Under the pieces are notes generated by a model. That model was not told the origin of the DNA, did not search any database, and saw nothing but the letters and a program-made list of their open reading frames with translations. The position numbers were made by a program, and so were the translations under genes. From the sequence record KY608965.1: DNA of 64,000 bases, one strand, 5' to 3'. The stretch is from Escherichia phage phiEC1. Positions 1 to 55,587 of this stretch are shown here, one piece after another (position 1 is the first letter of the stretch; every line of letters begins with the position of its first letter).

Positions 1-1084
1 TTGCTTTGCAATTAATAAGGTCGTTAACAGCGTCATCAACTTCTTTAATAGAAGAGATAGCACCTAGTTTATATTTAGTTTCAATTGCATCTCGGAAAGG
101 TTTGTGTTTAAACAAAGGTCCCCAGAATTCTACGCAATCAGTAGCTTTAGCACGCCATGATTTCTCTTCACGAATCATTTCGCCTGTTTCTTCGTCAAGG
201 AATTCGCGAGCATACCACCCGGCTTTAGGCTTAACTACAAAACCAATTTCAGTTGCCATTTCTAGCAAGCCACTGAATGGGTCGATACCGCCATCAAAAT
301 TAACTGTGATCGGGAAAGTAGATTTCTCTTTAACTGTACGAGATTTTTCTGCTTTCAACGTGAAGTCATAACCGGTCAATTCTGTACCTTCTTTAACCTG
401 ACGTTTAGAGATAAAGAATACAGTGTTAGCAGAGTAAAGAATACCTGTACCACCGCCCATAATCTCTTTAGGATATAGTCCGCCGATTTCCATTGCTGTA
501 TGGTTGATTGCAACACATGGAATATCTTTAATAGTCAGATACGGGGTTACAATACGGAAAAGAGATTTAAGTGCCTTAGCACGAGACATATCACCTACGA
601 CTTTCTCGTTCAATGCATCTTCGGTTTCTTTCTTAGATGCAGTATTACCGATTGAATCGATAAAGATAATAACTTTATCACCGCGTTCAATTGCATCAAG
701 CTGATTAGTCATATCAACTTTAAGTTGTTCGACGGACTGAATTGGTGTATGAACTACACGGTCTAAATCAACACCCATTGAACGGAAGTAAGATTCTGAA
801 GCACCGAATTCTGAGTCATAGAACAAACAGATTGCATCTTTATATTTCTTCATATACGCTGCAACCATAGTTAGTCCAAACAATGTTTTAAAATGTTTAG
901 AAGGTGCAGCAAAAATAGTCAAGCCTGATTGCAATCCTGCATTCAGAGCACCACCTAGTGCAATATTCAACATCGGAATACGAGTAGGGACTTCATCACG
1001 ATTATTAAACAGCTTAGACTTAGTCAAGTCTGCAGTCATTTTAGAAGTAGAAGCTTTAATCAGACGAGATTTTAAATCAGACAT
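1..1084 (-). CDS. uvsX: UvsX RecA-like recombinase, N-terminal part (gene runs off window start)
   Basis: Minus-strand ATG at 1082-1084 gives MSDLKSRLIKASTSKMTADLTK..., T4 UvsX-like N-terminus; synteny. Confidence 0.85.
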   Translation of the reverse strand, partial: MSDLKSRLIKASTSKMTADLTKSKLFNNRDEVPTRIPMLNIALGGALNAGLQSGLTIFAAPSKHFKTLFGLTMVAAYMKKYKDAICLFYDSEFGASESYFRSMGVDLDRVVHTPIQSVEQLKVDMTNQLDAIERGDKVIIFIDSIGNTASKKETEDALNEKVVGDMSRAKALKSLFRIVTPYLTIKDIPCVAINHTAMEIGGLYPKEIMGGGTGILYSANTVFFISKRQVKEGTELTGYDFTLKAEKSRTVKEKSTFPITVNFDGGIDPFSGLLEMATEIGFVVKPKAGWYAREFLDEETGEMIREEKSWRAKATDCVEFWGPLFKHKPFRDAIETKYKLGAISSIKEVDDAVNDLINCKA

Positions 1085-1183
1085 TGTATTTTTCCATAGG
1101 CATCATTATATTTTACTCATGTTTAAAAGATAAGATGATTATATACTAAGAGTTATACAGCATTTAAAACTTTAAACAGGCTC

Positions 1184-1732
1184 TTAACGAGCCCATTTGA
1201 TAATTTCTGTAATCAAATTATTACGTTCGCTTGCATTAAATCCTATAACTTTGTTAGCACCATCATGATTAAGTAATTGATACGTTTGGATTTTGTTATG
1301 AATTGCAAACTCTTCAAAATGTGAAATGACTGTATTAAAACCGAATGAAGACAAAGTAATAAGGTCGTCTTCAAAACTTTCAGTCATTTCATTACGTGTT
1401 AAAATAATTGTGAACACATCATGGTTTTGGCAAAGACGAACATAATCCTGTTCATAAACATCAAGAACCGAGTCCGCATCTTGTCGAATACGTCCATAAA
1501 CCCAGTTACTAATATATCCACGGTCTAACAGATAAATCTTAGTAGGGTCTAAATAATTCAACATCGTTTCGAAACAGCCAACTTCATTTCGAGACTTAAC
1601 ATCGAAACGTCCATCAACTGTTCGTTTAGGGAAATCAATCTTTACATATCTTTCACTAATTTCCATTATGTCATTAATGAAAGTTGTTTTACCGGCATTA
1701 TCCGGGCCGTCTACTAAAATAATTTTAGCCAT
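1184..1732 (-). CDS. P-loop small-molecule/nucleotide kinase-like protein
   Basis: 182 aa; Walker A ILVDGPDNAGKTT near N-terminus, shikimate/gluconate/dNMP-kinase-like size; function inferred. Confidence 0.55.
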   Translation of the reverse strand: MAKIILVDGPDNAGKTTFINDIMEISERYVKIDFPKRTVDGRFDVKSRNEVGCFETMLNYLDPTKIYLLDRGYISNWVYGRIRQDADSVLDVYEQDYVRLCQNHDVFTIILTRNEMTESFEDDLITLSSFGFNTVISHFEEFAIHNKIQTYQLLNHDGANKVIGFNASERNNLITEIIKWAR

Positions 1733-1733
1733 T

Positions 1734-2633
1734 TTATTCCTCGATTACGACATCTTCGTATTTAGGTATATTATACGGCGAAGAAATTAAAGCATTAAAG
1801 TAGATGAACTCACCAAGACCTGGATGGAATACTTCTTCAGGATTTTCGAAATATTGAATCTTCGGACGTCCTTTAAGAATTTGATAGTACTCAGTTTTAG
1901 TTGGATTAAAAATTCGAATCAGCGCTTCTTCAGGATACTTATTTCTGTCGAAGCTATTATTTGGATCGGTTATATAAAGCGGTTGACCTAATTGAATTGC
2001 GCATTCAACCACTTGTTCAAAACGATAACACGGGTCACTAATTCGAAATGGATGAAAAATACCATCTAGATGAATAGGAGCCAAATCACCTACAAGACGC
2101 TGCATGACGGAAGGACGTATAACTTTCTGCGTTACGATAATCTTATTACCATCGGCACCTGCGTTAACCAGCACTTCCTTTTGACGTTCATTCAACACAG
2201 TAGTTTGAAGTGAACGATTAACAGACAACATGTCGGTTTTTAAGAATTCATCAATATAAAAACGTGGTTTATTAGGGTCTGCAGTGATATTGAAATTGAA
2301 TTCTACGTCAAAAGCGCCATCATATCCAGTGATATCTGTGATTAGAAAATCACAATCATAATAAGCAATTAATGAATCAACCACAAATTCATTTTCAGAC
2401 CAAAAATATTTACGAGTGTTATATGCGTTATCTTTATACCATAATGGAACAAACTTAAATTCCGGGAAAAGACGTTCACATTCTTTAATATCAGATGCAT
2501 TACGTGGATATGTAATCACATCACCTGGATTAGCACGGTGCAAATGAAGTTGGAAGTTGCCATCCTTAAGGATAGCATACTGTCCAGTTTCATAAGACCG
2601 CATACTCAAGATAGGTACGCGGAAAATAGCCAT
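1734..2633 (-). CDS. hypothetical protein, candidate DNA sugar-transferase of the modification module
   Basis: 299-aa ORF, stop/start coupled to neighbours; no motif I can assign; role inferred from position only. Confidence 0.5.
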   Translation of the reverse strand: MAIFRVPILSMRSYETGQYAILKDGNFQLHLHRANPGDVITYPRNASDIKECERLFPEFKFVPLWYKDNAYNTRKYFWSENEFVVDSLIAYYDCDFLITDITGYDGAFDVEFNFNITADPNKPRFYIDEFLKTDMLSVNRSLQTTVLNERQKEVLVNAGADGNKIIVTQKVIRPSVMQRLVGDLAPIHLDGIFHPFRISDPCYRFEQVVECAIQLGQPLYITDPNNSFDRNKYPEEALIRIFNPTKTEYYQILKGRPKIQYFENPEEVFHPGLGEFIYFNALISSPYNIPKYEDVVIEE

Positions 2634-3349
2634 TAGTCAAGGAATCCTTTAACATAATCAAAATCACGTTCAAACACATGGGCACTTACCATGGTATGAG
2701 TATAATCACCAACTTCTACACCGCATTCGTTAGCGATATAATGAAGTAATTTTCCTTGGAGATAAAAATCCAACTGCATAACAACAGCACAGTTCTGAGA
2801 ACGCATATGGCAGTGGGTATAAAGCTTACCATCACGAATATAATAAGTCACTGAGTCAGTACATGGATATTCAAGTGTTTCGTCCGAATCAAGCAAAGCC
2901 TGATCAGAACTTTCTAGAATTTGGAACACAACTCTTCGAGAGTTAGGTTTCTCTTTAAGTTCTTTTAGAAGAGCTGGTAATTGGGCCACAATGCGAGGAC
3001 CATAGAAAGTGTTGAAGTTCGCAGGCAAAGCATCTGATTTTGGTTTAGAAATGAATTTAGCGACATTAGGATATGCCTTAAACGCTTCTTCTGCATCAGT
3101 ACCACCAGAAATCATAAACTTCCAGAAGTCTTCGGCATATTCATAAGAGATGCGGTTAATACGTGGGTCGGTCATTTTGAACGATGATGGATTGTCAACA
3201 ACTACTGTCATGGACCCGATTTCATTACAACGTCCAATACGAGAATCAGTTACGAATTCCGGGTTTTCTAAAATTTCACGATTGACTGCTTTAAATGCGG
3301 TTTGAAAATCTGCGGCTTTGATATATTTCATTGTGTTATGTTTTCCCAT
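2633..3349 (-). CDS. 42: deoxycytidylate hydroxymethylase-like (thymidylate synthase fold, gene 42 family)
   Basis: 238 aa; motifs KPNSRRVVFQ, YPCTDSVTYYIRDG, HMRSQN...QLDF, HVFERDF parallel T4 gp42 NPDSRRGIMIY, MCTNTVQYLIRD, NMRSND...RNDY, HVYSRHF; Asp at the pyrimidine-specificity position. Confidence 0.75.
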   Translation of the reverse strand: MGKHNTMKYIKAADFQTAFKAVNREILENPEFVTDSRIGRCNEIGSMTVVVDNPSSFKMTDPRINRISYEYAEDFWKFMISGGTDAEEAFKAYPNVAKFISKPKSDALPANFNTFYGPRIVAQLPALLKELKEKPNSRRVVFQILESSDQALLDSDETLEYPCTDSVTYYIRDGKLYTHCHMRSQNCAVVMQLDFYLQGKLLHYIANECGVEVGDYTHTMVSAHVFERDFDYVKGFLD

Positions 3350-3391
3350 GTTTACCTCAATACAATTTATTATATACTCAATTCATAAAGC

Positions 3392-3631
3392 TTATTTGAA
3401 TTTCTTGGCAATGTTGATATAACGTAAAGCTTCAGAATCTATACTTCCAAGAACACTATGAAGAAATGCATCAGCGTAGTATTCCAATTGAACAGGTTCT
3501 TTAATCACTTTAGCCGCTTTGGTTTCAAACAGGCCCATCAGGGCCTTTTTAAGAATTTGTTCATTAGTGTTCAGTTTTATAGTCAAAATCTCTTCATTAA
3601 GTTGGTGGTTAAAAGTTTTTCTAGAAATCAT
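3392..3631 (-). CDS. hypothetical small protein
   Basis: 79-aa ORF; start overlaps upstream stop (ATGA coupling). Confidence 0.45.
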   Translation of the reverse strand: MISRKTFNHQLNEEILTIKLNTNEQILKKALMGLFETKAAKVIKEPVQLEYYADAFLHSVLGSIDSEALRYINIAKKFK

Positions 3632-4797
3632 TCCGGGTACCTCAAAGCGTCATCAGAGTTAGTTATATCAATAATAGATATAGAGTTTTCTGATAACCCA
3701 TTTTTAGATAACTGACGTTTATAATATCTTTCACAATATGTACACGTCGTCCCGCAGATTTCATTAGCACAATCGAAATCTGGATGTCTGAACCACCTTT
3801 TTTCTAAAAAGCCATCTAACAAAGAGGTTTCAATATTTACTGTATGTGAAAACTCAGTTTCGTTTTCAAGAGTGAAAATAGTCTCTAAAGGCTTCCACAG
3901 TTCTAACAAATTACCTTCAAACTTTTCAGAAGCGTATGCTTCAAGAACTTTCAAAATGTAGTCTGTGCTACCTGTACGTCCTGAAACTTTGAATTGAGTG
4001 ATACCAATATCATTATAAAGTTTCAAATCTTGAGGACGAACAAAACGAGTTCTCAACCAGTTAAATGGGTCTGTATCACGAGCTTTAATACAGTGCTGCA
4101 TAGGATATCCGTTTAAGGATTTAGCATCATCAGCTGTAACATCAGTACTATGGAAAATATAGCAAGAGTCACGATAGCTACAATGTGTTGTATACCCTTT
4201 ACCAGCATTAGAACAGAACTCATTTACAAGAACTTCAAATATTATATTGTTCTTATTGCAAAACTCTGCTGCACGCTTCAGGAAAGAAACTGAACGGTTC
4301 TTATGAATTCCGCAACAGACTTTTTTGATGTTATATTGGTCGTGCAAGTATTTGATTTGAGTTACGGCATCAACATGTAGAATTGTTGAAACTTCAATCT
4401 CAATATCTTTATTGACTTCACGAACAATTTCCATAACAACAGGGTTAGCGATAGTAATACGCCATACGCCTATTGACCAAAGATACTGAACATAATCCTG
4501 AATAGCTTTCTTCTTCCACTCAACTAGTTCTCTTTTTGAACCAGGATTTATCGTGTTGAGTGTATAGTTAAAGCAAATACCTAATTCGTTACAACGTTTA
4601 ACGTAGTCTTCTAACATCTTTTTGTCAACGTCAGGAAGCCTAAAATCAGGTCTGGCTGCTACAAAAGCCATTTCTCTTGTAGAGCCATATACTTCGTTTA
4701 TCAAGCTATTAGGATAGGTTTTATTGAGCTCTACGATTTTATCAAGAAGAGCTAAATCAAAATTCGTTCCGATTTTAAAAGTATTCATTTTTTGCAT
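3628..4797 (-). CDS. cysteine-rich hypothetical enzyme (possible TIM-barrel/Fe-S protein)
   Basis: 389 aa; Cys cluster CCGIH...FC...CSNAGKGYTTHCSYRDSC and C-terminal CANEICGTTCTYCERYY; weak resemblance to U32-family proteins, not confirmed. Confidence 0.55.
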   Translation of the reverse strand: MQKMNTFKIGTNFDLALLDKIVELNKTYPNSLINEVYGSTREMAFVAARPDFRLPDVDKKMLEDYVKRCNELGICFNYTLNTINPGSKRELVEWKKKAIQDYVQYLWSIGVWRITIANPVVMEIVREVNKDIEIEVSTILHVDAVTQIKYLHDQYNIKKVCCGIHKNRSVSFLKRAAEFCNKNNIIFEVLVNEFCSNAGKGYTTHCSYRDSCYIFHSTDVTADDAKSLNGYPMQHCIKARDTDPFNWLRTRFVRPQDLKLYNDIGITQFKVSGRTGSTDYILKVLEAYASEKFEGNLLELWKPLETIFTLENETEFSHTVNIETSLLDGFLEKRWFRHPDFDCANEICGTTCTYCERYYKRQLSKNGLSENSISIIDITNSDDALRYPE

Positions 4798-4844
4798 CTC
4801 GCGTTAATTGATGCGATGGTTTTTTGCAGGTCTTACTTAAATTA

Positions 4845-5231
4845 TTATAGATTCGGTTTATATGATTTAAATGTTTCGAATTCGCCTTTATTCATAAGAG
4901 CTTTGAATTCGTCAGGACGCATAGCTTTGTCGTCGATAATCCAATCATATACTGGTTTATGTGTTAGCAAATTATGATACTTCAAACCAATGTTTTCCAA
5001 GTTCTGAATCAGACTTGGGAGAATGTCAATTGCTATACGTCCAGGACCTACTGACTTCATACCGCGTGCAGTATAAAGCGTTATAGTATGCCCTGCATCA
5101 TACAGGGCATTAATGGCGGTCACCATTTCGACGTCTGGTTTGAAGTTCACATAATCACGATTGTTATTCCACTCTGTTATACAATCATCGACATCAAAAC
5201 AAAGATTAAGCATGTTTTCTACACGGTGCAT
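4845..5231 (-). CDS. HAD-superfamily phosphatase
   Basis: Motif I FDVDDCIT, motif II ITLYTAR, motif III HKP, motif IV WIIDDK; ATG at 5229-5231 overlaps upstream TAA. Confidence 0.65.
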   Translation of the reverse strand: MHRVENMLNLCFDVDDCITEWNNNRDYVNFKPDVEMVTAINALYDAGHTITLYTARGMKSVGPGRIAIDILPSLIQNLENIGLKYHNLLTHKPVYDWIIDDKAMRPDEFKALMNKGEFETFKSYKPNL

Positions 5232-6916
5232 TAGATTCGTTCCCATTGATGAGTGATATCGCCACCGATTGGACGATAGGAAACACCAGTTTCTTTATCA
5301 GTTAGTACCCATTTACCAGGATTTTTTGTAATCAGAGTAGCCGTTACAGGTTCTGCTACGTCATAACTAATAGAGCCGTCTTGAAGTACACGGCCCATGT
5401 TACGTAATTGCTTAGTCAGAAGTTCCATACCTTTATAATATGCGGCAACCGCTTTAAGTGGATTATTCTTGAAATAACCACCTAATGCAATCCAAATAAT
5501 TGCTACAGCCAAATGATGATACTCGTTAAACGAACTCATCTTTCCATATTTGTAAACTAATGGATTGATGTTAATAGTCACATTACAAGTTGTTTCATCA
5601 ATAGTAAACTGTCCCCAGGTCGGATTAGCATTGAATTCATCATAACCTGAAACAGCATAAAGCACTTTAGCTTCATCATACAATTTTGGCCCGTAAATCT
5701 TGGTTTCACCAAAATATCCACGAGGGTCGATAAACTTGACTTCGCCGTTATCAGTAATCATAGTATTACTGAAGTTTGGGTCACCGTGAATAACAGAGTA
5801 CTGTCCCTGAGAACGGTTATGATAACGAATAAGATGTTCTAAAGCTTGTTTCAACATTGGCTTCAGACGTCCAATCTTAGTGTAGTTCACGTGTGTGATT
5901 TTACCAAATGAATCAATCAATGGCTGAATGCTTTCACAACGATCAATAACTTTCGTATAGAACTCTTTAGTGAAATCACGGCGAACAGTTTCAGGACTTA
6001 CAAAATAAGTGTCTGTGCTGAATTTCAGTGCATCTAAAATTGCATCAACAATTTGTGGACGAGCAAGACTTGATTTGGATTTAATATATTCAAATGCCGG
6101 CTTACCTTTAATACGTTCCATTTCAAAATTATTTTCATTTACCGAAACTAACTGAGGAACTGAATCTGATTTCACTTTCAAATACCATGAAATCTCATCT
6201 TTTTGAAGAGCTCGACCTTGTTCGGTTAACGCGAATTTAGTTACAGTTTCTTCGCCAATTTCAACTGCATTAAAACTACGATTAAGTTCACGAACTTCAT
6301 GAGCTTTTTCAAGTTTAGGCATATCACCTAAATCAATTAGATTCATAAGCTCTGATTTATTGAATGCACTGCCGTAAAGGAATTCTACGAAATCACGTCC
6401 TTTGCAGTATTCGTGAATTTCCTCGTCAGTAGAACCCATGTAGAATTCCCAGTCTTTGAACTGATAAATTCCTACAACATTACCGCCTGTTGAACCTACG
6501 TTAGTGATATTTTCACCATCGAAATTATATCGACATTCATCACCCTTAACATAGATTGCGTTAACATTCCAAGACCATGAACCAAAATCAGGAATAATAT
6601 CACACCAGTTAACAATTACATTATGGCCATCTAAATCTTTGTATAATTTAGCAAGAGCATAAGCAGAACCATACGCTTCATCAACTGTACGAATAGTCAC
6701 ATTGAACCCTTCTTGCTCACAATAAGCTCGAACAGTTTCAGCAAATTTTGAATGAACTACTACAATAATTTCATCTGCGCCAAGGTCAGAATAAATTGTA
6801 TACAAATTGCTCAGAATAGTGTCTTGCTTATAGTTCACAAGAACTTTTGGAATATGGTGAGTAATTGGATATAAACGAGTTGCCAATCCAGCACCAAGAA
6901 TAACAGCTTTTTTCAT
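5231..6916 (-). CDS. bifunctional sugar-1-phosphate nucleotidyltransferase / APH-like anomeric sugar kinase
   Basis: N-terminus VILGAGLATRLYPIT (RmlA/GlmU-type G-x-G-T-R-L-x-P-x-T); C-terminus VIHGDPNFSN...FIDPRGYFG (aminoglycoside/choline-kinase-type catalytic loop); SD GAGGA upstream. Confidence 0.8.
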   Translation of the reverse strand: MKKAVILGAGLATRLYPITHHIPKVLVNYKQDTILSNLYTIYSDLGADEIIVVVHSKFAETVRAYCEQEGFNVTIRTVDEAYGSAYALAKLYKDLDGHNVIVNWCDIIPDFGSWSWNVNAIYVKGDECRYNFDGENITNVGSTGGNVVGIYQFKDWEFYMGSTDEEIHEYCKGRDFVEFLYGSAFNKSELMNLIDLGDMPKLEKAHEVRELNRSFNAVEIGEETVTKFALTEQGRALQKDEISWYLKVKSDSVPQLVSVNENNFEMERIKGKPAFEYIKSKSSLARPQIVDAILDALKFSTDTYFVSPETVRRDFTKEFYTKVIDRCESIQPLIDSFGKITHVNYTKIGRLKPMLKQALEHLIRYHNRSQGQYSVIHGDPNFSNTMITDNGEVKFIDPRGYFGETKIYGPKLYDEAKVLYAVSGYDEFNANPTWGQFTIDETTCNVTININPLVYKYGKMSSFNEYHHLAVAIIWIALGGYFKNNPLKAVAAYYKGMELLTKQLRNMGRVLQDGSISYDVAEPVTATLITKNPGKWVLTDKETGVSYRPIGGDITHQWERI

Positions 6917-6957
6917 GTTGAAGTCCTCATTGGTAAGTAGGTGTATTGTACACTATT

Positions 6958-7101
6958 CTAGTTAAAGCATTCATACTTTGCTTGTAGTCCAATCATAATC
7001 CATCCAATTACAAGTGTTGGAATCATTACTGGAGCCGTTAAGCTCCAGTAGATAGTCATGACAAGCATCAATAGTAAAAGTCCTATTGTTATTGCTTTCA
7101 T
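6958..7101 (-). CDS. small hydrophobic protein (47 aa), not in ORF track
   Basis: MKAITIGLLLLMLVMTIYWSLTAPVMIPTLVIGWIMIGLQAKYECFN; ATG overlaps the SIS-gene TGA (ATGA). Confidence 0.35.
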   Translation of the reverse strand: MKAITIGLLLLMLVMTIYWSLTAPVMIPTLVIGWIMIGLQAKYECFN

Positions 7102-7733
7102 TGTTCGCCTCGTAACATGGCACCTAGTGCACCGCCTGGATGGAACTTAAGGAAGTCATTAGAGGTAAATCCACGTTCAGACGAAAGGTTGATAGCAAAC
7201 GTATCGATAAGCGCTAACAACAATGTAGTGGACATGGTCGGAGCCAGAGAATTCTCGTCAACCTCTACCGCGATACCGGTACAGAACGTATAATCAAAAA
7301 GAGCTTCGTATTCTTGCGGAATGTCAGGGTTACAATGTAACAGAATCTGTTTAACCTGAGGACGAATCATACGAAGATGTTTAGCAACACCTATCATTTC
7401 TTCAGTCTTACCAGAACGACTGATGTGAACTAATACATCATTGGGTGCAATAAATCCTGCATCCCCATGAGAATAATGCCCAGTGTTCAAGTACATACTC
7501 GGGATACCGAGTGAAGCAAAAGTCTCTGAAGCTTTAGTTGCGATATTAGCGTTCTTACCAACACCTGTAATAATTACACGACTTTCATAATTACTCAGTC
7601 CAGGGCGACGAAGAGTTTCAAGAATAACATTATATCGGGCAGAGTTTTGACTAATTACTTTAGCCATAGTGGCAAGAGATGAAGCTTGTTTTACGATTGC
7701 GTCAATAGCGATAGTGATTGGTGTAGTTTTCAT
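7098..7733 (-). CDS. SIS-domain sugar-phosphate isomerase, KdsD/GutQ-like arabinose-5-phosphate isomerase without CBS domains
   Basis: GVGKNANIATKASETFASLGIPS, HISRSGKTEE, LAPTMSTT, FHPGGALG match the KdsD SIS domain (GMGKSGHIG..., ISNSGES, LAPTSSTT, HPGGALG). Confidence 0.8.
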   Translation of the reverse strand: MKTTPITIAIDAIVKQASSLATMAKVISQNSARYNVILETLRRPGLSNYESRVIITGVGKNANIATKASETFASLGIPSMYLNTGHYSHGDAGFIAPNDVLVHISRSGKTEEMIGVAKHLRMIRPQVKQILLHCNPDIPQEYEALFDYTFCTGIAVEVDENSLAPTMSTTLLLALIDTFAINLSSERGFTSNDFLKFHPGGALGAMLRGEQ

Positions 7734-7773
7734 ATTTCTCTCATTTAATTAGTTGGCCGTCCTTGGCATTATA

Positions 7774-10485
7774 TCAAAAATCGAACATATCGAACAGAGA
7801 TGCTTTCTTCTCGTAATCGAGTTTCGCTGCTGATGTGAATCCTTCAAGTGGTTTAATAAATGTCTTCTCAAGGAGAACAGTGTAGTCCATCCAATGAAGT
7901 ACGTCGTCTTTAATTAAATCTGTGATTTCAGTACCAGAAGGCCATGCGATACATTTATCACCGAACGGGTTTCCATCACGTAAAGGCAGAACGTATACCT
8001 TTTCGCCTTCTACAACTTGTGGAGCATCAATATTACCTTTGATAGCCCGGTTATATGTCAGAATTCCACGAATATGGAACGGACATTTAGGACCAGGGAA
8101 TCCACCAACGTCATATTTAGCAATGTTATTCGCAGAAGATACCGACGCGATGCTAATATAATTCAATTGACGGAATTCTTTTTCAAACTCTTTAAAATAT
8201 TCTTGTAATGATTCTTCACCTTCTTGAAGCATACGACGAATACATTCTTTAAGAGCTTTCTGTACTGCTTTAGGGGTCGAAGATTTCTGAGTCTCTAGAC
8301 CCATGATTTTGAGTTTAGGCTCAGCGTAACGAGTACCTTCCATATCCCACACGTTTAATGCGTAACGTTTCTTACCAGTCCAGAATCCACCAATACCTTT
8401 AGAACCGAGCGGAGGACCAGCGATAGCTTCTCGGTCCATGAACATTAAGTGTTGTTTATTGTTCATGTATTCACACATTTCACGGAAACCTCTATCAATA
8501 GCTGGTTCCATACGTTCACGTGCAAACTTATCTAAGAAGTCTACCCAATGGTTGGTATCACGGAATTTAGATTCACCAACCTTATCAATAATTTTATCTG
8601 CAGATACATAAATGGAGTCTGTATCACCATATAGAACGAAAGCTTCACCTTCTGTACCACAAACTTCATTCAGATATTCATTAACTTTACGTTCAATCCA
8701 CTGTAAAGCCATTTGTCCAAATGTTGTGATTGCAGTAGCATTACGCAAATCATAATAACGGAACCAAACGTTGCCAAGTGCACCATAAAGTGAGTTGATA
8801 AGCAATTTACGGTTAATTTGTGCAGTCATACCTGCAACTTCAGTACGTTGAGCTCTAAACAACATTTCATTAAGAGATTTAGCAGACAACTTTTTAATCT
8901 TTTCTTTAATCTCGTCAGTGAAGTCGAAACGATAATCAACATCTAATGGTTCGTCAACAGAAAGATTAGGATTATGCAATGCCTCTTTAATTATTTCACC
9001 ATTACGTTGAGCCGCAAGCATGTAACCTTTATGTTCTTTACGTTGATTAAAGACCTTAGTGATTTCAGTTGGAACTACACCGTCACGGTCTTTATAATAC
9101 ATCATGCCGTTAGGAGAGCAACTGTACACATCTGAAGGACGTTCAGCGATTGCGTTAATATAATCATGCAGTGGAGCTACTTTAAACGTTCCTGCTATTG
9201 TTTCTGGGCTAATATTCACTTGGCGAATAATACTTGGATACAGAGATGTAAGGTCGAAACTCATTACATATTTGTATCGATTTGGAATAGGTTCCTTAAC
9301 AAAAGCGCCAGGATAAGGTTGAACCGGGTGAGAACGACCTTGTGGAATCACCTTGTTTTGTTCTTTAAGGCTATTAAAAATAATAGCATCCCATGTTTTA
9401 ATTGGGCTAAACACAGATTGAATCTGTATCTTAGCATAATAACCCATGTCCAAACTCAAGTTGATGAACTGACGCTTAGCATCAATTTGCAATACACGAT
9501 ACACGTCGATAATGTTATAAGAAATATATCGTTGGTGATTGCTTTCACGAAGCTTAGAAATAGGACCGTCATATTTCAGTTTACCGACATTCAATTCAAA
9601 TTCTGAAATGTAATCCAGAGAATACGACGGTTGATTGGTAAAAGAGAATTTTTTGTAAAGGTCAATGTAATCAAGAACAGAGATACCGAACAATGTAATG
9701 ATTTCACGAGAACCATACATGTTTTCGATAACTTTAACACGAGTTTTACGATGTGGTGATAAACGTTTCGCAGTAGATTCGCCAAAAATATTCTTGATTC
9801 GGTTATACACATATGGAATATCAAATGACTCAACGTTCCATCCAGTCAAAATGACAGGAGTTTTCTGTTGCCAGAAGTTGAGATATTCCATCAACAATTC
9901 TTTTTCGTTATCGAACGGCATATAAATGATTTTATCAATAATTTCGGATGGAACTTCATCACCACCTTGTTCTTGAAGCTTAGCTGCAATTTCGATAGAC
10001 CATTCTTCTACATTACCATATGGAGAATTCAATAGATCAAATACGTAGAACCTGTCGTCAATTGAGTCATAATGGGTGATAGCATCAATCGGATGTTTTG
10101 CTTGTGACGGCTCAGGAAACCCATCCGGAGATGTTACTTCGATGTCGAAGTTAGCCACACGAATTTTTGTATGGTCGTATTTGATTTCATAGTTATAAGT
10201 GTCAGACAAATACGCTAATTTGAAATCGTCCATGCCAAGTGCTTCAAGACCGATATCTTCCATGCGTTTAATCCATTGAGACGCATCACGCATATTAGCG
10301 AACAACTTACGAGTACACGGCTTACCGTAGATATCGAAATATTTCGTAGCTTGACTTTCCGGACAATGAGCAAACAGTGATGGTTTATATTCTACTTCAC
10401 GAGTACGTTCACGGCCATTAGAATCGATGTAACGTTCAAAAATTGAATCACCAATCTGTTCAACCGTTAAGTAAAATTCTTTCAT
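7774..10485 (-). CDS. 43: DNA polymerase (family B) gp43
   Basis: 903 aa; MKEFYLTVEQIGDSIFERYIDSNGRERTREVEYKPSLFAH...; exo and pol motifs (FDIEV, YGDTDS); T4 synteny. Confidence 0.97.
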   Translation of the reverse strand: MKEFYLTVEQIGDSIFERYIDSNGRERTREVEYKPSLFAHCPESQATKYFDIYGKPCTRKLFANMRDASQWIKRMEDIGLEALGMDDFKLAYLSDTYNYEIKYDHTKIRVANFDIEVTSPDGFPEPSQAKHPIDAITHYDSIDDRFYVFDLLNSPYGNVEEWSIEIAAKLQEQGGDEVPSEIIDKIIYMPFDNEKELLMEYLNFWQQKTPVILTGWNVESFDIPYVYNRIKNIFGESTAKRLSPHRKTRVKVIENMYGSREIITLFGISVLDYIDLYKKFSFTNQPSYSLDYISEFELNVGKLKYDGPISKLRESNHQRYISYNIIDVYRVLQIDAKRQFINLSLDMGYYAKIQIQSVFSPIKTWDAIIFNSLKEQNKVIPQGRSHPVQPYPGAFVKEPIPNRYKYVMSFDLTSLYPSIIRQVNISPETIAGTFKVAPLHDYINAIAERPSDVYSCSPNGMMYYKDRDGVVPTEITKVFNQRKEHKGYMLAAQRNGEIIKEALHNPNLSVDEPLDVDYRFDFTDEIKEKIKKLSAKSLNEMLFRAQRTEVAGMTAQINRKLLINSLYGALGNVWFRYYDLRNATAITTFGQMALQWIERKVNEYLNEVCGTEGEAFVLYGDTDSIYVSADKIIDKVGESKFRDTNHWVDFLDKFARERMEPAIDRGFREMCEYMNNKQHLMFMDREAIAGPPLGSKGIGGFWTGKKRYALNVWDMEGTRYAEPKLKIMGLETQKSSTPKAVQKALKECIRRMLQEGEESLQEYFKEFEKEFRQLNYISIASVSSANNIAKYDVGGFPGPKCPFHIRGILTYNRAIKGNIDAPQVVEGEKVYVLPLRDGNPFGDKCIAWPSGTEITDLIKDDVLHWMDYTVLLEKTFIKPLEGFTSAAKLDYEKKASLFDMFDF

Positions 10486-13939: not shown

Positions 13940-15628
13940 TTATGAAACAGTCATCACAGTAAATCGTCCAACTTTGCTCATTTGAAGATGTTGTCCATAA
14001 GCTTGTGGGTCATGGTCTCTGTGACTAATTATAAACACGTTTGCATCGGTTAGAGAGTTAAGAATTGTTGAAATAGCTTTAATACCTTCAGAATCAGTCG
14101 CGGAATCCATGACTTCGTCCATAATTAATGTATTGATTCTAACACCAGAGATCTTTTCAGCAATATCTCGCCATGTAAACAACAATGCGATATCGATACG
14201 TGCCTTTTCACCTTGACTAAATGAAGCATAACTAAAATCTTCACGACCACGTGATTTTATAGATTCATTGAATTCTTCGTCAATAGAAAACACATAATCA
14301 GCTTCCATGATTTTAAGGTAATGGTTAATCTGCTTGTTGAACAGAGGCACATATTTTTTAATGATAGCACCTTTAATACCAGAATCTTTTAACATATCTG
14401 TTATAATACCACGATGGTATTTTTCAAGAACGATATCTGATTTTGTTTTAATGATTTTATCAAGTTCTTTTTGAAGCAAAGCTATCTCATCGGCATGGTC
14501 GATAAATTCCGCCGAGGCTTGTTCTATTGCAGCTTTAACTTTCTTAGCTTTATCAATAGTGGCAATCATTGCTTGTTTCTTAGTACGAATATCAGATGCA
14601 AGGTCCTGCTTAGTCTTAACATTAGCTCTATATTCGTCCACTAGGACACTCAGATTATCTCTGTGGCAGGTAAGTTGCTCGAATGAGTGATTACATTCAT
14701 GAAGCTTATCGGTAATCTTAGAGACAATAGGATCACCCTGGTGCAACTGTGATGCACAAGTAGGACATGTACCGCCATCATGATACATCTTAATAACTTT
14801 GTTATATGAGTCAATTTTAGATTTAATCAAGAATGCTTCTTGTCCTATCTTGTTGAATGCCTCAGTAGGGTCTTCGTCAAGAACGATATTAAGTAGACGC
14901 TCGTTAGCTTCTTCGATTTCTGCTTTTAATGAACGAGCTTCTTTAGCCAGGTCGTCATACATATTCTGTAGACGCGCTACATTATCACCAGATAATTTCT
15001 TTTGACGTTCGATATTCTCGTTATAAATCTTAATTTGTTGGATAATACCATCTTTCTTGGCATCGAGAACTTGCCCCTGGGAATTAAGTTCTCGAACTTG
15101 AGACTTATTGATTTTATCCATTTCAGCGAGTGTGCCAACTTCTAAAAGGTCTTCGACAAGTTTTCTACGAGCAGGGGTGCTAAGAGCCATGAAAGGGGTA
15201 TACCCTGCCGTCCCAAGCACAACGATTTGTTTAAAAGACGCGTATGACATTCCGATGCTACGTTCAAATTCTTCTTGGAAGTCACGACTGCTGGCAGATT
15301 CATCAAGACGAACACCGTCAACGGAGATTTCGAAAATATTGGGCTTTTGGCCACGTTTAATGAAGTATTTTTTACCATCGAATTCCATCCAAAGCTCAAC
15401 TAAGAGCTCTTTCTTGTTCGTGCTATTAATGATTTGTCCTTTCTTAACATCACGAAATGGTTTACCGAAAAGTCCGAAAGTAATGGCTTCTAACATCGTA
15501 GATTTACCACCGCCATTTTTACCTGTGATTAAGGTCTTTTGGACTTTATCTAATTGGATATCGATAAAATTTTGCCCAACAGACATTATATTTTTATAAC
15601 GAACACGATTTAATTTAAATGTTTTCAC
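13940..15628 (-). CDS. 46: recombination endonuclease subunit gp46 (Rad50/SbcC-like)
   Basis: 562 aa; Walker A GKNGGGKST, coiled-coil middle, C-terminal signature/Walker B. Confidence 0.95.
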   Translation of the reverse strand: MKTFKLNRVRYKNIMSVGQNFIDIQLDKVQKTLITGKNGGGKSTMLEAITFGLFGKPFRDVKKGQIINSTNKKELLVELWMEFDGKKYFIKRGQKPNIFEISVDGVRLDESASSRDFQEEFERSIGMSYASFKQIVVLGTAGYTPFMALSTPARRKLVEDLLEVGTLAEMDKINKSQVRELNSQGQVLDAKKDGIIQQIKIYNENIERQKKLSGDNVARLQNMYDDLAKEARSLKAEIEEANERLLNIVLDEDPTEAFNKIGQEAFLIKSKIDSYNKVIKMYHDGGTCPTCASQLHQGDPIVSKITDKLHECNHSFEQLTCHRDNLSVLVDEYRANVKTKQDLASDIRTKKQAMIATIDKAKKVKAAIEQASAEFIDHADEIALLQKELDKIIKTKSDIVLEKYHRGIITDMLKDSGIKGAIIKKYVPLFNKQINHYLKIMEADYVFSIDEEFNESIKSRGREDFSYASFSQGEKARIDIALLFTWRDIAEKISGVRINTLIMDEVMDSATDSEGIKAISTILNSLTDANVFIISHRDHDPQAYGQHLQMSKVGRFTVMTVS

Positions 15629-16490
15629 TTAAATTTTTCCTCATGAATTCAGAAACTAAAGCCTGTAAAGAACTTTGTATAGGATATCCTAAATTGACTA
15701 AATTTTTAGAAAAAGTCACATATTTAGGTTTGTTCATTTTAACCCATTCAACGTAAAGCATATCAAAATTTTCCCAATGATATCCTTTTCTTCTAGATTT
15801 CAAATGAGTGTCTCTAACTTTAGGATTTTTCCAACTGCGTGAAACTCCAGCCGATAATGATTCTCTATATTCGGCTGTTTTAGATATTTTACGACAAGCA
15901 TCCAAATGTTTTTGTTTATTAATAGGGTCACTAAACCACTTTTGGGTCATAATAGAGACGGTTTCTTTAAATTCCTTTGAACTTGTCATAATTCTGTGTT
16001 TCTTTAAATTTTCCGGATTTTTAAACCATGCTTTTAAAGCTTGACTAATCTTAATTCTATTATCCTGATTGGAATAGTATAATGTCATTTTTATAGAATT
16101 AACTTTACAAACATTTTCGAATTCTAAAGAATACGCCTCGGCTATATTATTTAGTTCATGCGTTGTACAATTTAAATTAAATCGCCCGGTATACATTCTT
16201 TGAAGCGCGTTAATCATCTTGTGGTTGCCAGTTTTTGCCAAAATGCTATGTGCAATAAAATGGTTATAATGACTTAAATGACACAAGTTCCATTTACATG
16301 TTTTAAAATCTGGAAAAATAGATTTTGGTAGTATATGGTGAACCTGAGTCAGTCCTTTTACTTTATTAGTGGAATTAGTTTTTATAAAGTTTAAATACTC
16401 ATCAAGTCCTTCCCACGAAGGGAAGGAGGTTTTAAGAATTTTATAAATTTGAGTTTCATAATCAGTCTTCGTCATTATACGCGTCCTCAA
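15615..16490 (-). CDS. free-standing HNH homing endonuclease
   Basis: 291 aa; VHHILPKS...HLSHYNHFIAH HNH motif; inserted between 46 and 47; overlaps 46 start by 14 nt. Confidence 0.7.
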   Translation of the reverse strand: MRTRIMTKTDYETQIYKILKTSFPSWEGLDEYLNFIKTNSTNKVKGLTQVHHILPKSIFPDFKTCKWNLCHLSHYNHFIAHSILAKTGNHKMINALQRMYTGRFNLNCTTHELNNIAEAYSLEFENVCKVNSIKMTLYYSNQDNRIKISQALKAWFKNPENLKKHRIMTSSKEFKETVSIMTQKWFSDPINKQKHLDACRKISKTAEYRESLSAGVSRSWKNPKVRDTHLKSRRKGYHWENFDMLYVEWVKMNKPKYVTFSKNLVNLGYPIQSSLQALVSEFMRKNLSENI

Positions 16491-16719
16491 TACATGCTTC
16501 AGCCATTTTAAGAATAGAACCAGGAGTATCGTTGTCCATTATATTAAAGCTAAATTCAATAGCCCAGTCTGTGCAGACATGAACTGCTTTAACTTCATTG
16601 CCTTCAACGCGTAATGGCTCGATCCAATACTTGATAGTGTTCTCGAATCCATCATCATCTTTAACGTCCATTTCGACTTCAAGCCTGAGTCCAGCATTGT
16701 TAAATTCATCTAAAGTCAT
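16462..16719 (-). CDS. hypothetical acidic protein
   Basis: 85-aa ORF coupled to gene 47 stop. Confidence 0.45.
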   Translation of the reverse strand: MTLDEFNNAGLRLEVEMDVKDDDGFENTIKYWIEPLRVEGNEVKAVHVCTDWAIEFSFNIMDNDTPGSILKMAEACIEDAYNDED

Positions 16720-17735
16720 TGTGTTGCCTCAATATAAAGTTCGTTGGAATATTTGACCAGCGCTTCTCTGTCTTCATCTGAGATATCTGGAATCGCGTCA
16801 ATATATTCTTTAATGATATCTTGAAGTGATTTAATCTCGATTTCCTGGTCGTCATCAGATTCAACACTGTTATCAACTTTAGAAACCATACGAAGAGAGT
16901 GAACTACTTTTTCAAGTTCAGATTCAAACTTAGTCAACTCTGAATCAATTTCTGATACTATAACACGTAAGGCTAGATTAGTATAATCAGAATAATTGAT
17001 TTTGCCTTTAAACGGATAAGTGATTCGTCGATGCCATGTTGTTTCATTAGGAATAAATTCCATACGTTCAACATCAGTGTCAAATACCCAGAATCCGCGC
17101 GGGTCGTTCTCATCACCTGCAGTAAGTGTCCATGGTGTCCCAATATATTTGACGTTAGCAGCTTCAGAGATTGTGTGGAAGTGGCCGGACCAGACTTGTT
17201 TATAGGTCTTTAAGAAATCAGGTTCAAGCCCATGAGACTTCATTCCTTTATAGAAATAAAAGCCATTCAGTTCCCAGTGCCCAACACAATACGCGGCAGA
17301 AGAAGTCTTGATGTGCTCTAAGATTTCACCTGTATTTTCTTCACACATCCATGGAACGATATCAATTAGACATCCGTCAAAATCTACAGTAGTTGGATGT
17401 TCGTAAATAGTAAAGTTTTCAAATTGAGTTAACAATTCAGAAACAGTGTTAGGTGTTATTGTATTCTTAAACGCCATGTCATGGTTTCCTATCGTGACAT
17501 GAACGTGAATGCCTGCTTTAGAAATCATATCAACTATTTCACGATTGAATTCCATTGTACGATGTGTAATTGCTTTACGGACGTCGAACCAATCACCGTA
17601 CTGAATCCAAGTTTTAATCCCGTGTTTCTTAGAGTATTCAATTGCTTGACGAATACCATCACGTTGAATATCTTGAACCCATGGGTCATCTTGTTTGACT
17701 CCGATATGGAAGTCGCCTAAGTGCAAAATTTTCAT
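16716..17735 (-). CDS. 47: recombination endonuclease subunit gp47 (Mre11/SbcD-like)
   Basis: MKILHLGDFHIG..., phosphoesterase motifs GNHD, GHWE. Confidence 0.95.
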   Translation of the reverse strand: MKILHLGDFHIGVKQDDPWVQDIQRDGIRQAIEYSKKHGIKTWIQYGDWFDVRKAITHRTMEFNREIVDMISKAGIHVHVTIGNHDMAFKNTITPNTVSELLTQFENFTIYEHPTTVDFDGCLIDIVPWMCEENTGEILEHIKTSSAAYCVGHWELNGFYFYKGMKSHGLEPDFLKTYKQVWSGHFHTISEAANVKYIGTPWTLTAGDENDPRGFWVFDTDVERMEFIPNETTWHRRITYPFKGKINYSDYTNLALRVIVSEIDSELTKFESELEKVVHSLRMVSKVDNSVESDDDQEIEIKSLQDIIKEYIDAIPDISDEDREALVKYSNELYIEATQ

Positions 17736-18524: not shown

Positions 18525-18740
18525 TTATCTCATTAAATTAAAATAAAAACGTCCATCCTCTTCAATACAGAACTCATACTCAACCGGAGTCCCATTTATC
18601 GAAAATGACACGTCATGTGGGTTCAAAGGGTCGATGTCAAAATTAATTTTAAATTCACGACCCAACAGTTTTACCAAATAAGGGATTGCTTCGTCAAAAG
18701 GTTCTTCTAAGTAGTTAGAGATGTCAATTGTCATCCTCAT
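18525..18740 (-). CDS. hypothetical protein
   Basis: ORF track; 5' end overlaps gene 55, internal Met start likely. Confidence 0.4.
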
Positions 18741-19281
18741 ATAAAAAATCCAAACTAGGCGAATCGCTAACAACTTCCTTCTTTTCAGCCCCAGGAGCTT
18801 TATAAGCGGATTCTTCATAATGCGTCATTTTATCGTAGATGTCTTGAATAAACGTTTCATCTACCAACGCTACCATATCATCGTCATGACTGTCGTAGAC
18901 GTTATGAACGAAGTAACTATATTTCTTTGCAACTTCCTTACGTTCTTTTTTGATACGTTGGACAAAAGCATTAAAACAAGCTCGAGTTATGTATGCATGT
19001 GGGTTATTGTACTTAGTTTCGTCGAAATTATGAAGTCCCTTAATAGAAGCTTCAATCCCGTCTGCAATCATCTCCTGCTTCCAAGACTGGGTATATCCTG
19101 AAAAGTTGAAACGTTTGGACAGGCCTTCGGCGATAAGCATAATTGCTAAACCGATGGTATCATTCTGACGAATAATTTTGTTTGGGTCTTTATTATTTAA
19201 GAGCTCCTTTTTCCACTCGATTATAGCGGCGAGAAGCTCTTTATTATTCACATAGTTATTTTTAGGTTTTTGTTCAGTCAT
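18724..19281 (-). CDS. 55: late-transcription sigma factor gp55
   Basis: [24 protein letters not shown]... matches T4 gp55; ATG at 19281 (track start is upstream TTG). Confidence 0.95.
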
Positions 19282-22534: not shown

Positions 22535-23005
22535 TTAATCATGTTTCCACACCCCGTTGGTATTTGACCAAAGTCGCTGATTATCTGATCCTCGCCACAA
22601 CTTTTTGGTCGGAAGATTTTTCTCATACTTACCATCAATAATAACATCAACATATTTAAGCATTTCTAGTTGTTTAATATCTTCAAACTTATATCCTGTC
22701 CACAACCAAATGCTTTTATTGGGATAAAGATTTTTAATAGTTTGTACCACAGAGTGAATCACGTCTCTGTTATCAGGATAAAGAGGGTCACCTCCAGTTA
22801 TAGTTAATCCTTCTATATAATCATTATTCAAACATTCAATTAATTGTTCTAGTGTTTCACCAGTGAATTGAATACCATTTCTAGCATTCCATGTTGATTT
22901 ATTATAACACCCTTCGCATTTATGCAAACAACCTGTAACGAAAAGAACGACCCTGCAACCAGGGCCATTCACAAAATCGCAAGGATAAAATCTATCATAA
23001 TTCAT
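22535..23005 (-). CDS. nrdG: anaerobic ribonucleotide reductase activating protein NrdG (radical SAM)
   Basis: CLHKCEGC cluster motif, 156 aa. Confidence 0.95.
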   Translation of the reverse strand: MNYDRFYPCDFVNGPGCRVVLFVTGCLHKCEGCYNKSTWNARNGIQFTGETLEQLIECLNNDYIEGLTITGGDPLYPDNRDVIHSVVQTIKNLYPNKSIWLWTGYKFEDIKQLEMLKYVDVIIDGKYEKNLPTKKLWRGSDNQRLWSNTNGVWKHD

Positions 23006-54852: not shown

Positions 54853-55587
54853 TTACCTTAAGATTGTTTCAATTTTAGAATAAAGCTCTTCTAAAGAGCT
54901 GTCGTTTGTAATAACTAAATCGCCTTCTTCAATAGGCAACCCAGCTTCTGTAATATGTTTATCGGTGGATTCCGTACCAGAGCGAACCACATGAATAACT
55001 GTAGCACCCATCGCTCTAGCGGTTTCCATTTCATGGACTTGACGTGTATCGGTTACGACATAGTAATCGAAATCACTTCCAATATAATCCATATAGTTTA
55101 ATGCAAAAAGTTTAACCCAATACATACGGTCAAATAAATTAACGACAACATCCGTACCGAGGGCTTGCATAAGACGGCGGATTGACCATGTGTCGTTGAT
55201 ATTATTTATAGCTTCACGCAGGGCTTCATATGGTTTAATATCTAGATACGAATATCCACCTTCTAACGATGATAATACTTTAACATTATTAATTGGTAAA
55301 TATTGACTTTGCAAATAAATTAGCGCTTCTTCCAATAATTCAATAACATCCAACTTATTGAGATTTAATGGTGTTTCACGGTCATATCCAACGCCTTCAA
55401 AGTATTCATATTTCAACTCTGTGAATACATCAGGATTTTCAGCATGCCTACGTCCCCAGGCTATTGCTAGAGCGTCTTTAATCGGATATGCCAATTGATA
55501 TTTTACGGATTTAAAGTTTGAATTGATGTAATCAGCAGTGGTGTCTTTACCACTACGTTTGATGCCGCTTAAAAAGATTAGCTCCAT
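54853..55587 (-). CDS. 1: deoxynucleoside monophosphate kinase gp1
   Basis: MELIFLSGIKRSGKDTTADYI... matches T4 gp1. Confidence 0.92.
   Translation of the reverse strand: MELIFLSGIKRSGKDTTADYINSNFKSVKYQLAYPIKDALAIAWGRRHAENPDVFTELKYEYFEGVGYDRETPLNLNKLDVIELLEEALIYLQSQYLPINNVKVLSSLEGGYSYLDIKPYEALREAINNINDTWSIRRLMQALGTDVVVNLFDRMYWVKLFALNYMDYIGSDFDYYVVTDTRQVHEMETARAMGATVIHVVRSGTESTDKHITEAGLPIEEGDLVITNDSSLEELYSKIETILR

Follow-up and report, generated by a model that had tools for sequence, protein, structure and literature searches.

The gene cluster between gp43 and uvsX

A 64,000-nucleotide stretch of DNA from Escherichia phage phiEC1 (KY608965.1), referred to here as the window, comes from a Mosigvirus, that is, an RB69-like phage of the T4 type. 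Across positions 1000-8000 it shares 97-98% nucleotide identity with about 150 Escherichia and Shigella phage genomes. Nine open reading frames (ORFs), all on the minus strand, extend from the DNA polymerase gene gp43 to uvsX (Table 1). The same arrangement is found in 151 phage genomes, Bas46 included (at least 80% coverage), and this recurrence marks the module as a genuine, conserved gene set. It is very probably the arabinosyl-5-hydroxycytosine (ara-5hoC) DNA hypermodification cluster of Mosigvirus phages, which has already been published (Thomas 2018; Mahler 2025; He 2026; Lee 2026). The module itself is a rediscovery; the new element is a proposed link between its peptidase-U32 family gene and the chorismate mutase gene carried by related phages.

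In T4, the corresponding slot is occupied by imm.1-imm-42-beta-gt-segA, and alpha-gt lies between genes 47 and 55. An earlier note on this DNA had described a phage-encoded module for nucleotide-sugar synthesis and DNA hypermodification in place of imm-42-beta-gt, a description that matches the published assignment of the RB69 and HY126 genes (PMC13326640). T4 Imm, Imm.1, beta-gt and alpha-gt gave noise only (E ≥ 0.3) in tblastn searches of the whole window, which bears out the exchange of genes in this slot. The interval from gp47 (16716-17735) to gp55 (about 18736-19281) holds no ORF longer than 107 aa, so the statement that alpha-gt is missing there also stands. With T4 gp42 as the query, the sole tblastn match in the window was the 238-aa ORF (24.8% identity), and neither a second gene 42 nor a further ThyA-family gene was found anywhere in its 64 kb. 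The note spoke of eight co-oriented genes: the orientation is right but the number is not, as nine are present and the note itself lists nine. Its domain calls agree with those made here for SIS, for NTP_transferase with a kinase-like C-terminus and for Thymidylat_synt, with HAD recovered through NCBIfam TIGR01689.

Five of the eight internal junctions are overlapping or 1 nt apart (-4, -16, -4, -1, +1), and the other three are gaps of 41-47 nt. A scan of positions 900-8000 for promoters and terminators was uninformative, with 21 promoter-like sites against 25.9 expected and 3 terminator-like sites against 3.3. One sigma-70-like site (10 of 12 positions, TTTAAA-16-TATAAT), at 4844-4871 on the minus strand, immediately precedes the start of U32; with the regional site count below chance, it is given no weight.

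Eight non-T4 genes between gp43 and uvsX were flagged by Thomas 2018, who proposed UDP-arabinose (UDP, uridine diphosphate) synthesis by ORF055c and ORF53_52c (PMC6024577). Lee et al. (Nucleic Acids Research 2026; bioRxiv June 2025) assigned RB69 gp45-gp55 to the ara-5hoC pathway and cite both He et al. 2026, on the Afh enzymes of phage HY126, and Mahler et al. 2025, which enter here as cited there (PMC13326640). UDP-arabinose synthesis also figures in the annotation of the BASEL phage Bas46. Compared with the pathway of RB69, HY126, Bas46-47 and Serratia phage LC53, the window matches in gene content and gene order from gp43 to uvsX. Its thymidylate synthase (TS) homolog and HAD protein are near-identical to the solved structures 9iqc and 9iqw, with the same TS signature residues, and the differences are at strain level only. 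Two genes that are split in the RB69 reference (ORF046/047 and ORF052/053), a circumstance put down to sequencing errors (PMC13326640; PMC6024577), are single intact ORFs of 299 and 561 aa in the window, which supports that account. What tells against the assignment is that, for the module as a whole, it would pass to phiEC1 by homology to RB69, HY126 and Bas46.

Table 1. Genes of the module, its boundaries and the distal kinase gene in the window.
Feature	Coordinates	Strand	Length (aa)	Basis or remark
uvsX	5..1084	-		Truncated by window start; downstream boundary of module
Thymidylate-kinase-like P-loop kinase (RB69 gp45 equivalent)	1184..1732	-	182	PHROG 761 thymidylate kinase 2e-45; weak TIGR00041 match
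GT-B fold protein, candidate first (base-proximal) arabinosyltransferase (RB69 gp46:47 equivalent)	1734..2633	-	299	Predicted fold
5-hydroxy-dCMP synthase (thymidylate-synthase superfamily; RB69 gp48 equivalent)	2633..3349	-	238	PDB match, signature residues, gp48 function
79-aa ORF	3392..3631	-	79	In slot held by chorismate mutase in most relatives
Peptidase-U32 family Cys-rich protein (RB69 gp50 equivalent)	3628..4797	-	389	Pfam PF01136; 13 Cys
HAD phosphatase (AfhF/RB69 gp51 equivalent), Ara-1,5-P2 to Ara-1-P	4845..5246	-	133	PDB and NCBIfam matches
Bifunctional Ara5P 1-kinase/UDP-arabinose pyrophosphorylase (AfhE/RB69 gp52:53 equivalent)	5231..6916	-	561	Domain and PDB matches
47-aa hydrophobic ORF (RB69 orf054c family)	6958..7101	-	47	Start overlaps SIS stop by 4 nt; PHROG 3610
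SIS-domain arabinose-5-phosphate isomerase (RB69 gp55 equivalent), Ru5P to Ara5P	7098..7733	-	211	Pfam SIS 8e-10; PHROG 5670
gp43 DNA polymerase	7774..10485	-		Upstream boundary of module
Gene 1 dNMP kinase (5hodCMP to 5hodCDP), distal part of pathway	54856..55587	-		tblastn with Bas46 dNMP kinase, 97% identity

Base, sugar and transfer in the ara-5hoC pathway

With 5 differences in 238 residues, the TS homolog shares about 98% identity with PDB entries 9iqc, 9ir2 and 9iqu. The first two are presumably the HY126 enzyme, judging from the accession series shared with 9ir0 ('phage HY126 glycosyltransferase'). Aligned with E. coli ThyA and T4 gp42, it carries N169, D177, E143 and the catalytic C146 (E. 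coli ThyA numbering). The region around position 169 reads HMRSQNCAVVMQLD in the window, YQRSCDVFLGLPFN in E. coli and NMRSNDVVFGFRND in T4 gp42, giving Asn in the window and Asp in both of the others. Its C-terminal region is shorter than that of gp42, and it shows neither the Asp169 nor the close gp42 similarity of a T4-type hydroxymethylase. According to Lee et al., Asn169 and Asp177, together with E143, are the signature of 5-hydroxy-deoxycytidine monophosphate (5hodCMP) synthases (PMC13326640). RB69 gp48 makes this nucleotide with oxygen drawn from 18O2 and with bound flavin mononucleotide, and its expression leads to 5-hydroxydeoxycytidine in plasmid DNA (PMC13326640).

The earlier note had called this gene a dCMP-hydroxymethylase homolog and named hydroxymethyl-dC as the acceptor of the sugar. 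On that account, hydroxymethylcytosine (hmC) would be made by a T4-type dCMP hydroxymethylase and then arabinosylated, with arabinose 5-phosphate (Ara5P) dephosphorylated before being phosphorylated at C1. RB69 DNA was indeed first described as ara-hmC (PMC6024577), many GenBank records label the gene dCMP hydroxymethylase, and the window protein does belong to the TS superfamily. Later nuclear magnetic resonance and mass spectrometry, along with the 18O2 work, found mono- and di-arabinosylated 5-hydroxycytosine in RB69 DNA, with the sugar ether-linked directly to C5 (PMC13326640). Mono- and di-arabinosylated cytidines are reported for Mosigvirus NP as well, where the earlier ara-hmC assignment is termed erroneous (PMC13390438). 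Given also the Asn at ThyA position 169, the 24.8% identity to gp42 and the near-identity to 9iqc, an hmC-based pathway is highly improbable, and both the acceptor and the enzyme name have to be revised to the 5-hydroxy-dCMP synthase type. The TS-superfamily enzyme would thus hydroxylate dCMP at C5 using O2 and flavin, a step shown in close relatives. RB69 gp159, a deoxynucleoside monophosphate (dNMP) kinase, phosphorylates 5hodCMP (PMC13326640). The gene 1 kinase of the window would take the same step, likewise shown in close relatives, and host enzymes are presumed to finish the triphosphate for replication.

The sugar is assigned, in RB69 through gp55, gp52:53 and gp51 and in HY126 through AfhE and AfhF, to an arabinose route starting from ribulose 5-phosphate (Ru5P) (PMC13326640). 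The earlier note had proposed the same sugar, starting compound and set of enzymes (isomerase, fused kinase/pyrophosphorylase, HAD protein), in agreement with this published work. The SIS protein, predicted to make Ara5P from Ru5P, matches the NCBIfam models for KpsF/GutQ (8.5e-32, 110.8 bits, cut-off 203.7) and KdsD (3.7e-30, 105.3 bits, cut-off 505). It stays below these equivalog cut-offs because it consists of the SIS part only: it shares the SIS catalytic domain with the KdsD/GutQ isomerases but lacks their CBS domains (211 vs. 328 aa). In the 561-aa fusion, residues 3-99 match NTP_transferase and residues 308-409 give kinase-like matches (PDB 1jyk, 2e-5). The HAD protein matches PDB 9iqw (E 1e-86) and 1xpj (2e-10) and the NCBIfam capsule biosynthesis phosphatase (2e-13).

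For the order of the steps, the HY126 work as relayed by Lee et al. has the fused enzyme phosphorylate Ara5P at C1 to arabinose 1,5-bisphosphate (Ara-1,5-P2). The HAD phosphatase then takes off the 5-phosphate to give arabinose 1-phosphate (Ara-1-P), from which UDP-arabinofuranose (UDP-Araf) is formed by the N-terminal domain of the fusion (PMC13326640). The route in phiEC1 would run likewise from Ara5P through Ara-1,5-P2 and Ara-1-P to UDP-Araf. This sequence of kinase, phosphatase and uridylyl transfer, again as relayed for HY126, overturns the dephosphorylation before C1 phosphorylation that belonged to the hmC-based proposal. The route resembles sugar salvage of the MurU/AmgK type in its use of a kinase and a nucleotidyltransferase to activate a sugar at C1. 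It differs in that the two are fused in the window and the kinase acts on a 5-phosphorylated sugar, and therefore a bisphosphate intermediate arises and a dedicated HAD phosphatase is needed.

The 299-aa protein, listed as an unknown in the earlier note, is present where it was placed but can now be given a fold. It has no match in a PDB sequence search, and its AlphaFold2 (AF2) model (predicted local distance difference test score, pLDDT, 94.7) matches in Foldseek MshA (3c4q), UDP-GlcNAc 2-epimerases and the HY126 glycosyltransferase 9ir0. Together with the published prediction of RB69 gp46:47 as the base-proximal arabinosyltransferase (PMC13326640), the modelled fold makes it a candidate GT-B arabinosyltransferase. 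It may attach the first arabinose to the 5-hydroxyl group, and a second arabinose would be added by a second transferase encoded outside the window. Two reports speak against this role. Single glycosyltransferases showed no activity on 5hoC DNA, and the first transferase has not been reconstituted (PMC13326640). Its homolog TH1_063 of Shewanella phage Thanatos-1 (locus L009, 4317-5219) has been called a UDP-xylose pyrophosphorylase (PMC12838424), a label that conflicts with the arabinosyltransferase assignment.

In all 15 T4-like loci scanned, as well as in phages JS98 and Q7622, a gene for the thymidylate-kinase (Tmk)-like protein occurs together with those for the TS homolog and the GT-B protein. 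The earlier note assigned no role to this kinase, nor to the Cys-rich enzyme. Purely as an inference, transfer of the first arabinose might take place on the mononucleotide, and the kinase would then act on the bulky product. The homolog of the 47-aa ORF adjoins the SIS gene in most T4-like loci.

Taken as a whole, the module parallels the glucosyl-hmC system of T4 (gp42, alpha-gt and beta-gt). Both occupy the same genomic slot and have the gene 1 kinase in common, and in both a TS-superfamily enzyme alters dCMP before replication, after which the C5 substituent is glycosylated. The substituent is a hydroxyl group in the window module and a hydroxymethyl group in T4, formed with flavin and O2 rather than methylene-tetrahydrofolate. 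Moreover, the window module needs phage enzymes to make its donor UDP-Araf, has no detectable sequence similarity to alpha-gt or beta-gt, and lacks imm. The chemistry of the ara-5hoC module, worked out in 2025-2026, amounts to protection of phage DNA from restriction and CRISPR. The value of analyzing the window lies in the correction from hydroxymethyl- to hydroxycytosine, as misleading database labels are many for these genes ('dCMP hydroxymethylase', 'peptidase', 'phosphoheptose isomerase').

The U32 protein and its gene neighbors

The U32 gene is intact in the window and 99-100% identical across about 150 genomes. Its product scores 42.2 bits against PF01136 (gathering cut-off 22.4). A PDB sequence search returned no matches, and the AF2 model (pLDDT 88) has as its best PDB match the U32 protein 5d88 (Mk0906; E 6e-7, TM-score 0.70). 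Ten cysteines are invariant in an alignment of 30 homologs (161, 180, 195, 206, 212, 236, 343, 348, 352 and 355). Among the four E. coli U32 paralogs the best match is RlhA, the sole long profile alignment (hhalign E 4e-5, 203 columns), in which phage C206/C212 align to RlhA C169/C176 and the third and fourth iron-sulfur (Fe-S) ligands are unaligned.

RlhA is required for 5-hydroxycytidine 2501 in 23S rRNA and depends on prephenate synthesis, Fe-S assembly and two U32-motif cysteines (PMC5727448). TrhP has the same role for 5-hydroxyuridine 34 in tRNA as RlhA has in rRNA. For the U32 proteins UbiU/V of anaerobic ubiquinone synthesis, prephenate is the oxygen donor (PMC10990095). With these proteins the phage protein shares the U32 domain and fold, and one of its cysteine pairs aligns, at a different spacing, to RlhA C169/C176. 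Gene neighborhoods suggest a genetic coupling to prephenate supply, and the pathway product proposed for it is a 5-hydroxypyrimidine, as with RlhA and TrhP. The phage protein is set apart as a very distant, 389-aa relative with its own C-terminal CX4CX3CX2C motif, whose substrate would be a deoxynucleotide or DNA.

The possible coupling to prephenate comes from related phages, where the small gene after U32 encodes an AroQ (CM_2) chorismate mutase. Examples are Kanagawavirus KLB31, Winklervirus Virsaitis27 and LC53, Tegunavirus fHe-Yen9-01 and Shewanella phage Thanatos-1. These enzymes score 34.7-44.6 bits (Pfam cut-off 27), overlap the U32 stop codon in most cases, and are invariant in the catalytic residues R11, R28, K39, S84 and Q88 (E. 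coli enzyme numbering). By tblastn the gene occurs in 52 phage records, 50 of which are T4-like or Thanatos phages with the gene adjoining U32 or the TS gene. The two genes tend to travel as a pair: in Thanatos-1 they are still together in a cluster with a rearranged order, Kanagawavirus KLB31 has both and Q7622 neither, and Dhakavirus JS98 and Acinetobacter phage Maestro are without both. Hidden Markov model searches of the 15 T4-like loci found U32 always with the TS homolog, the GT-B gene, the kinase, HAD and an AfhE-like gene, and chorismate mutase in 13, the exceptions being Mosigvirus and Marfavirus. In JS98 (locus L012, 2476-7589), imm is kept beside gp43 and no SIS, U32 or chorismate mutase gene is annotated. 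The AfhE-like, HAD, Tmk-like, TS and GT-B genes are retained, a reduced module in an E. coli phage.

The 79-aa ORF, whose close homologs come almost only from Mosigvirus-like genomes, was considered as a diverged chorismate mutase and rejected. It has no CM_2 match at E ≤ 10 and reaches 0.3% probability in hhalign against the phage enzymes, and four related T4-like loci encode a homolog of it alongside a genuine chorismate mutase.

The position of the U32 gene, two genes from an O2-dependent cytosine-5-hydroxylase, together with the link to RlhA, suggests an O2-independent route to 5hoC. With moderate confidence, the protein is proposed to hydroxylate C5 of deoxycytidylate, or of cytosine in DNA, in a reaction that takes its oxygen from prephenate and needs no O2. 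Such a second C5 hydroxylase would let the phage make 5hoC during anaerobic growth of the host. In Mosigvirus the partner chorismate mutase would have been lost, with prephenate supplied by host PheA/TyrA.

The same gene was sought in uncultured phages by scanning IMG/VR with a U32 profile, along with metagenome contigs, which yielded the 15 T4-like loci and 40 other phage loci. Of these 40, 20 have a gene for a homolog of the 299-aa GT-B protein (hhalign probability 99.4-99.8%), in many cases immediately before U32 and with the two frames overlapping; 16 have an AfhE-like gene and 10 a SIS gene. Eight encode a chorismate mutase, which four of them carry as a fusion with DAHP synthase, and another locus encodes DAHP synthase on its own. 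The DAHP_synth_1 neighbors were also considered as Kdo-8-P synthases using Ara5P, a possibility set aside because DAHP synthase models score three to four times higher and four are fused to chorismate mutase. None of the 40 loci has a hydroxylase-type TS homolog within about 10 kb of U32. The only ThyA-family gene there, in locus L038, was rejected as a hydroxylase, having D169/N177 as in ordinary ThyA.

Several of these loci are informative in their own right. In a 199-kb contig (IMG/VR UViG_3300011005_000048; L053, 2644-11810), two radical-SAM-like ORFs are followed by a GT-B homolog, a weak Tmk-like ORF, SIS, AfhE-like, a DAHP synthase::chorismate mutase fusion, a HAD-like gene, U32 and an exonuclease. 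This complete analogue of the window module has no TS gene; genes of the shikimate pathway stand in for the TS enzyme. A 60.9-kb contig (Logan SRR33454321; L017, 8495-16179) carries Gly_transf_sug, again a weak Tmk-like ORF, a GT-B homolog, U32, a TET-associated glycosyltransferase (33.9 bits, above the cut-off) and dUTPase/DCD, with UDP-galactopyranose mutase further on and no ThyA-type gene within 10 kb. It has the appearance of a separate cluster for modifying DNA with glycosyl-hydroxypyrimidines. In three contigs of up to 466 kb (L002, 7447-9939; L015 and L016, 8279-10601), a dCMP deaminase gene is followed by U32 and a conserved 248-254-aa protein, with thymidylate kinase and a UDG-fused DnaE polymerase in the vicinity; here U32 may act on dUMP.

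On the proposed function, many uncultured phages appear to depend on U32 alone, accompanied by phage DAHP synthase::chorismate mutase, a GT-B homolog and the arabinose genes, and would make glycosylated hydroxypyrimidine DNA with no TS-type hydroxylase. On the simplest reading, the hydroxyl group that accepts the sugar comes from U32 at a stoichiometric cost in prephenate, which would explain phage-borne enzymes that raise the supply of prephenate.

Alternative roles for U32 and wider meaning

Instead of hydroxylating a base, the phage U32 protein could reduce or epimerize a sugar or heterocycle, or act as a peptidase, whether for the supply of UDP-arabinose or in some other process. Table 1 of Lee et al. 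labels gp50 'sugar or heterocycle reductase' (PMC13326640), which also counts against a hydroxylase. The gene has the sugar genes on one side and the base genes on the other, many sugar enzymes are built on TIM-barrel folds, and two of the metagenomic loci (L003 and L015) have epimerase-like neighbors. The distribution of the genes points the other way. Of the 377 phage records with the TS homolog, 57 come from Acinetobacter and 22 from Rhizobium phages, and U32 is in none of those 57 and 22; its 221 phage records have Enterobacterales and Shewanella as the named hosts. Since the TS homolog occurs without U32, U32 is dispensable for ara-5hoC as such, which argues against a role in UDP-arabinose synthesis. 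The Acinetobacter phages DLP3 and Maestro make ara-5hoC without it, and hence it is unneeded for UDP-Araf or its transfer. The recurrent partnership with chorismate mutase and DAHP synthase would make no sense for a sugar reductase, and nothing else in the TS-less clusters could create the acceptor hydroxyl. A reductase, epimerase or peptidase is accordingly considered unlikely.

Still less probable is that U32, with chorismate mutase in the relatives, is an auxiliary host-takeover enzyme that acts on host RNA or quinones under anoxia and has no connection with phage DNA. All characterized U32 hydroxylation pathways do target rRNA, tRNA or ubiquinone (PMC10990095; PMC5727448), auxiliary metabolic genes are numerous in phages, and the module functions aerobically without U32 (PMC13326640). 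In more than 200 phage genomes, however, U32 is embedded among DNA-modification genes, often with overlapping frames. In unrelated phages it abuts GT-B homologs, a TET-associated DNA glycosyltransferase, dCMP deaminase, Tmk-like kinases and DNA polymerase genes. It also lacks DUF3656, the domain that distinguishes RlhA (PMC5727448).

The proposal of an O2-independent hydroxylase has to contend with several observations of its own. No chorismate mutase is encoded in the window, and the JS98-group E. coli phages are without U32 despite a facultatively anaerobic host. Similarity to the known proteins is remote: RlhA, TrhP and UbiU are reached at E 4e-5 to 7e-3 and UbiV not at all, the profile comparisons with UbiU, TrhP and UbiV being weak or nil (E 0.007, 0.003 and 0.13). 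The cysteine spacing is CX5C rather than CX6C. In vitro hydroxylation has so far been demonstrated for no U32 protein (PMC10990095). In the metagenomic loci, the absence of a TS homolog applies to the roughly 10 kb around U32. Finally, a literature search, whose coverage did not extend to He 2026 and Mahler 2025, found no paper that connects 5hoC with phage U32 or with chorismate mutase; those two may already treat gp50.

Elsewhere in the window, a 291-aa ORF (15615-16490, minus strand) lies between gp46 (13940-15628) and gp47, where Bas46 has two small ORFs instead. It shows weak tblastn similarity to T4 MobB (E 0.012) and to SegA, has no Pfam match, and from its sequence is probably a homing-endonuclease insertion.

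The window also carries an anaerobic ribonucleotide reductase (nrdG, 22538-23005; nrdD, 23005-24819; both on the minus strand). The phage accordingly has the means to metabolize nucleotides without oxygen, which sets a precedent in these phages for aerobic and anaerobic enzymes that come in pairs. If the U32 protein is an O2-independent hydroxylase, RB69-type phages would have dual aerobic and anaerobic routes to 5hoC, by analogy with the E. coli pairs TrhO/TrhP for 5-hydroxyuridine and UbiIHF/UbiUV for ubiquinone, in which a U32 protein coexists with an O2-dependent enzyme for the same step.

Such a function would explain how a DNA base that requires O2 can be made without oxygen by phages of gut bacteria. 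It would offer dCMP as a small, soluble candidate substrate for reconstituting the U32 'hydroxylase' family. It would also mean that phages manipulate the shikimate pathway to feed the modification of their DNA, and the marker set of U32, chorismate mutase or DAHP synthase and a GT-B homolog would find hydroxypyrimidine-modified genomes in metagenomes.

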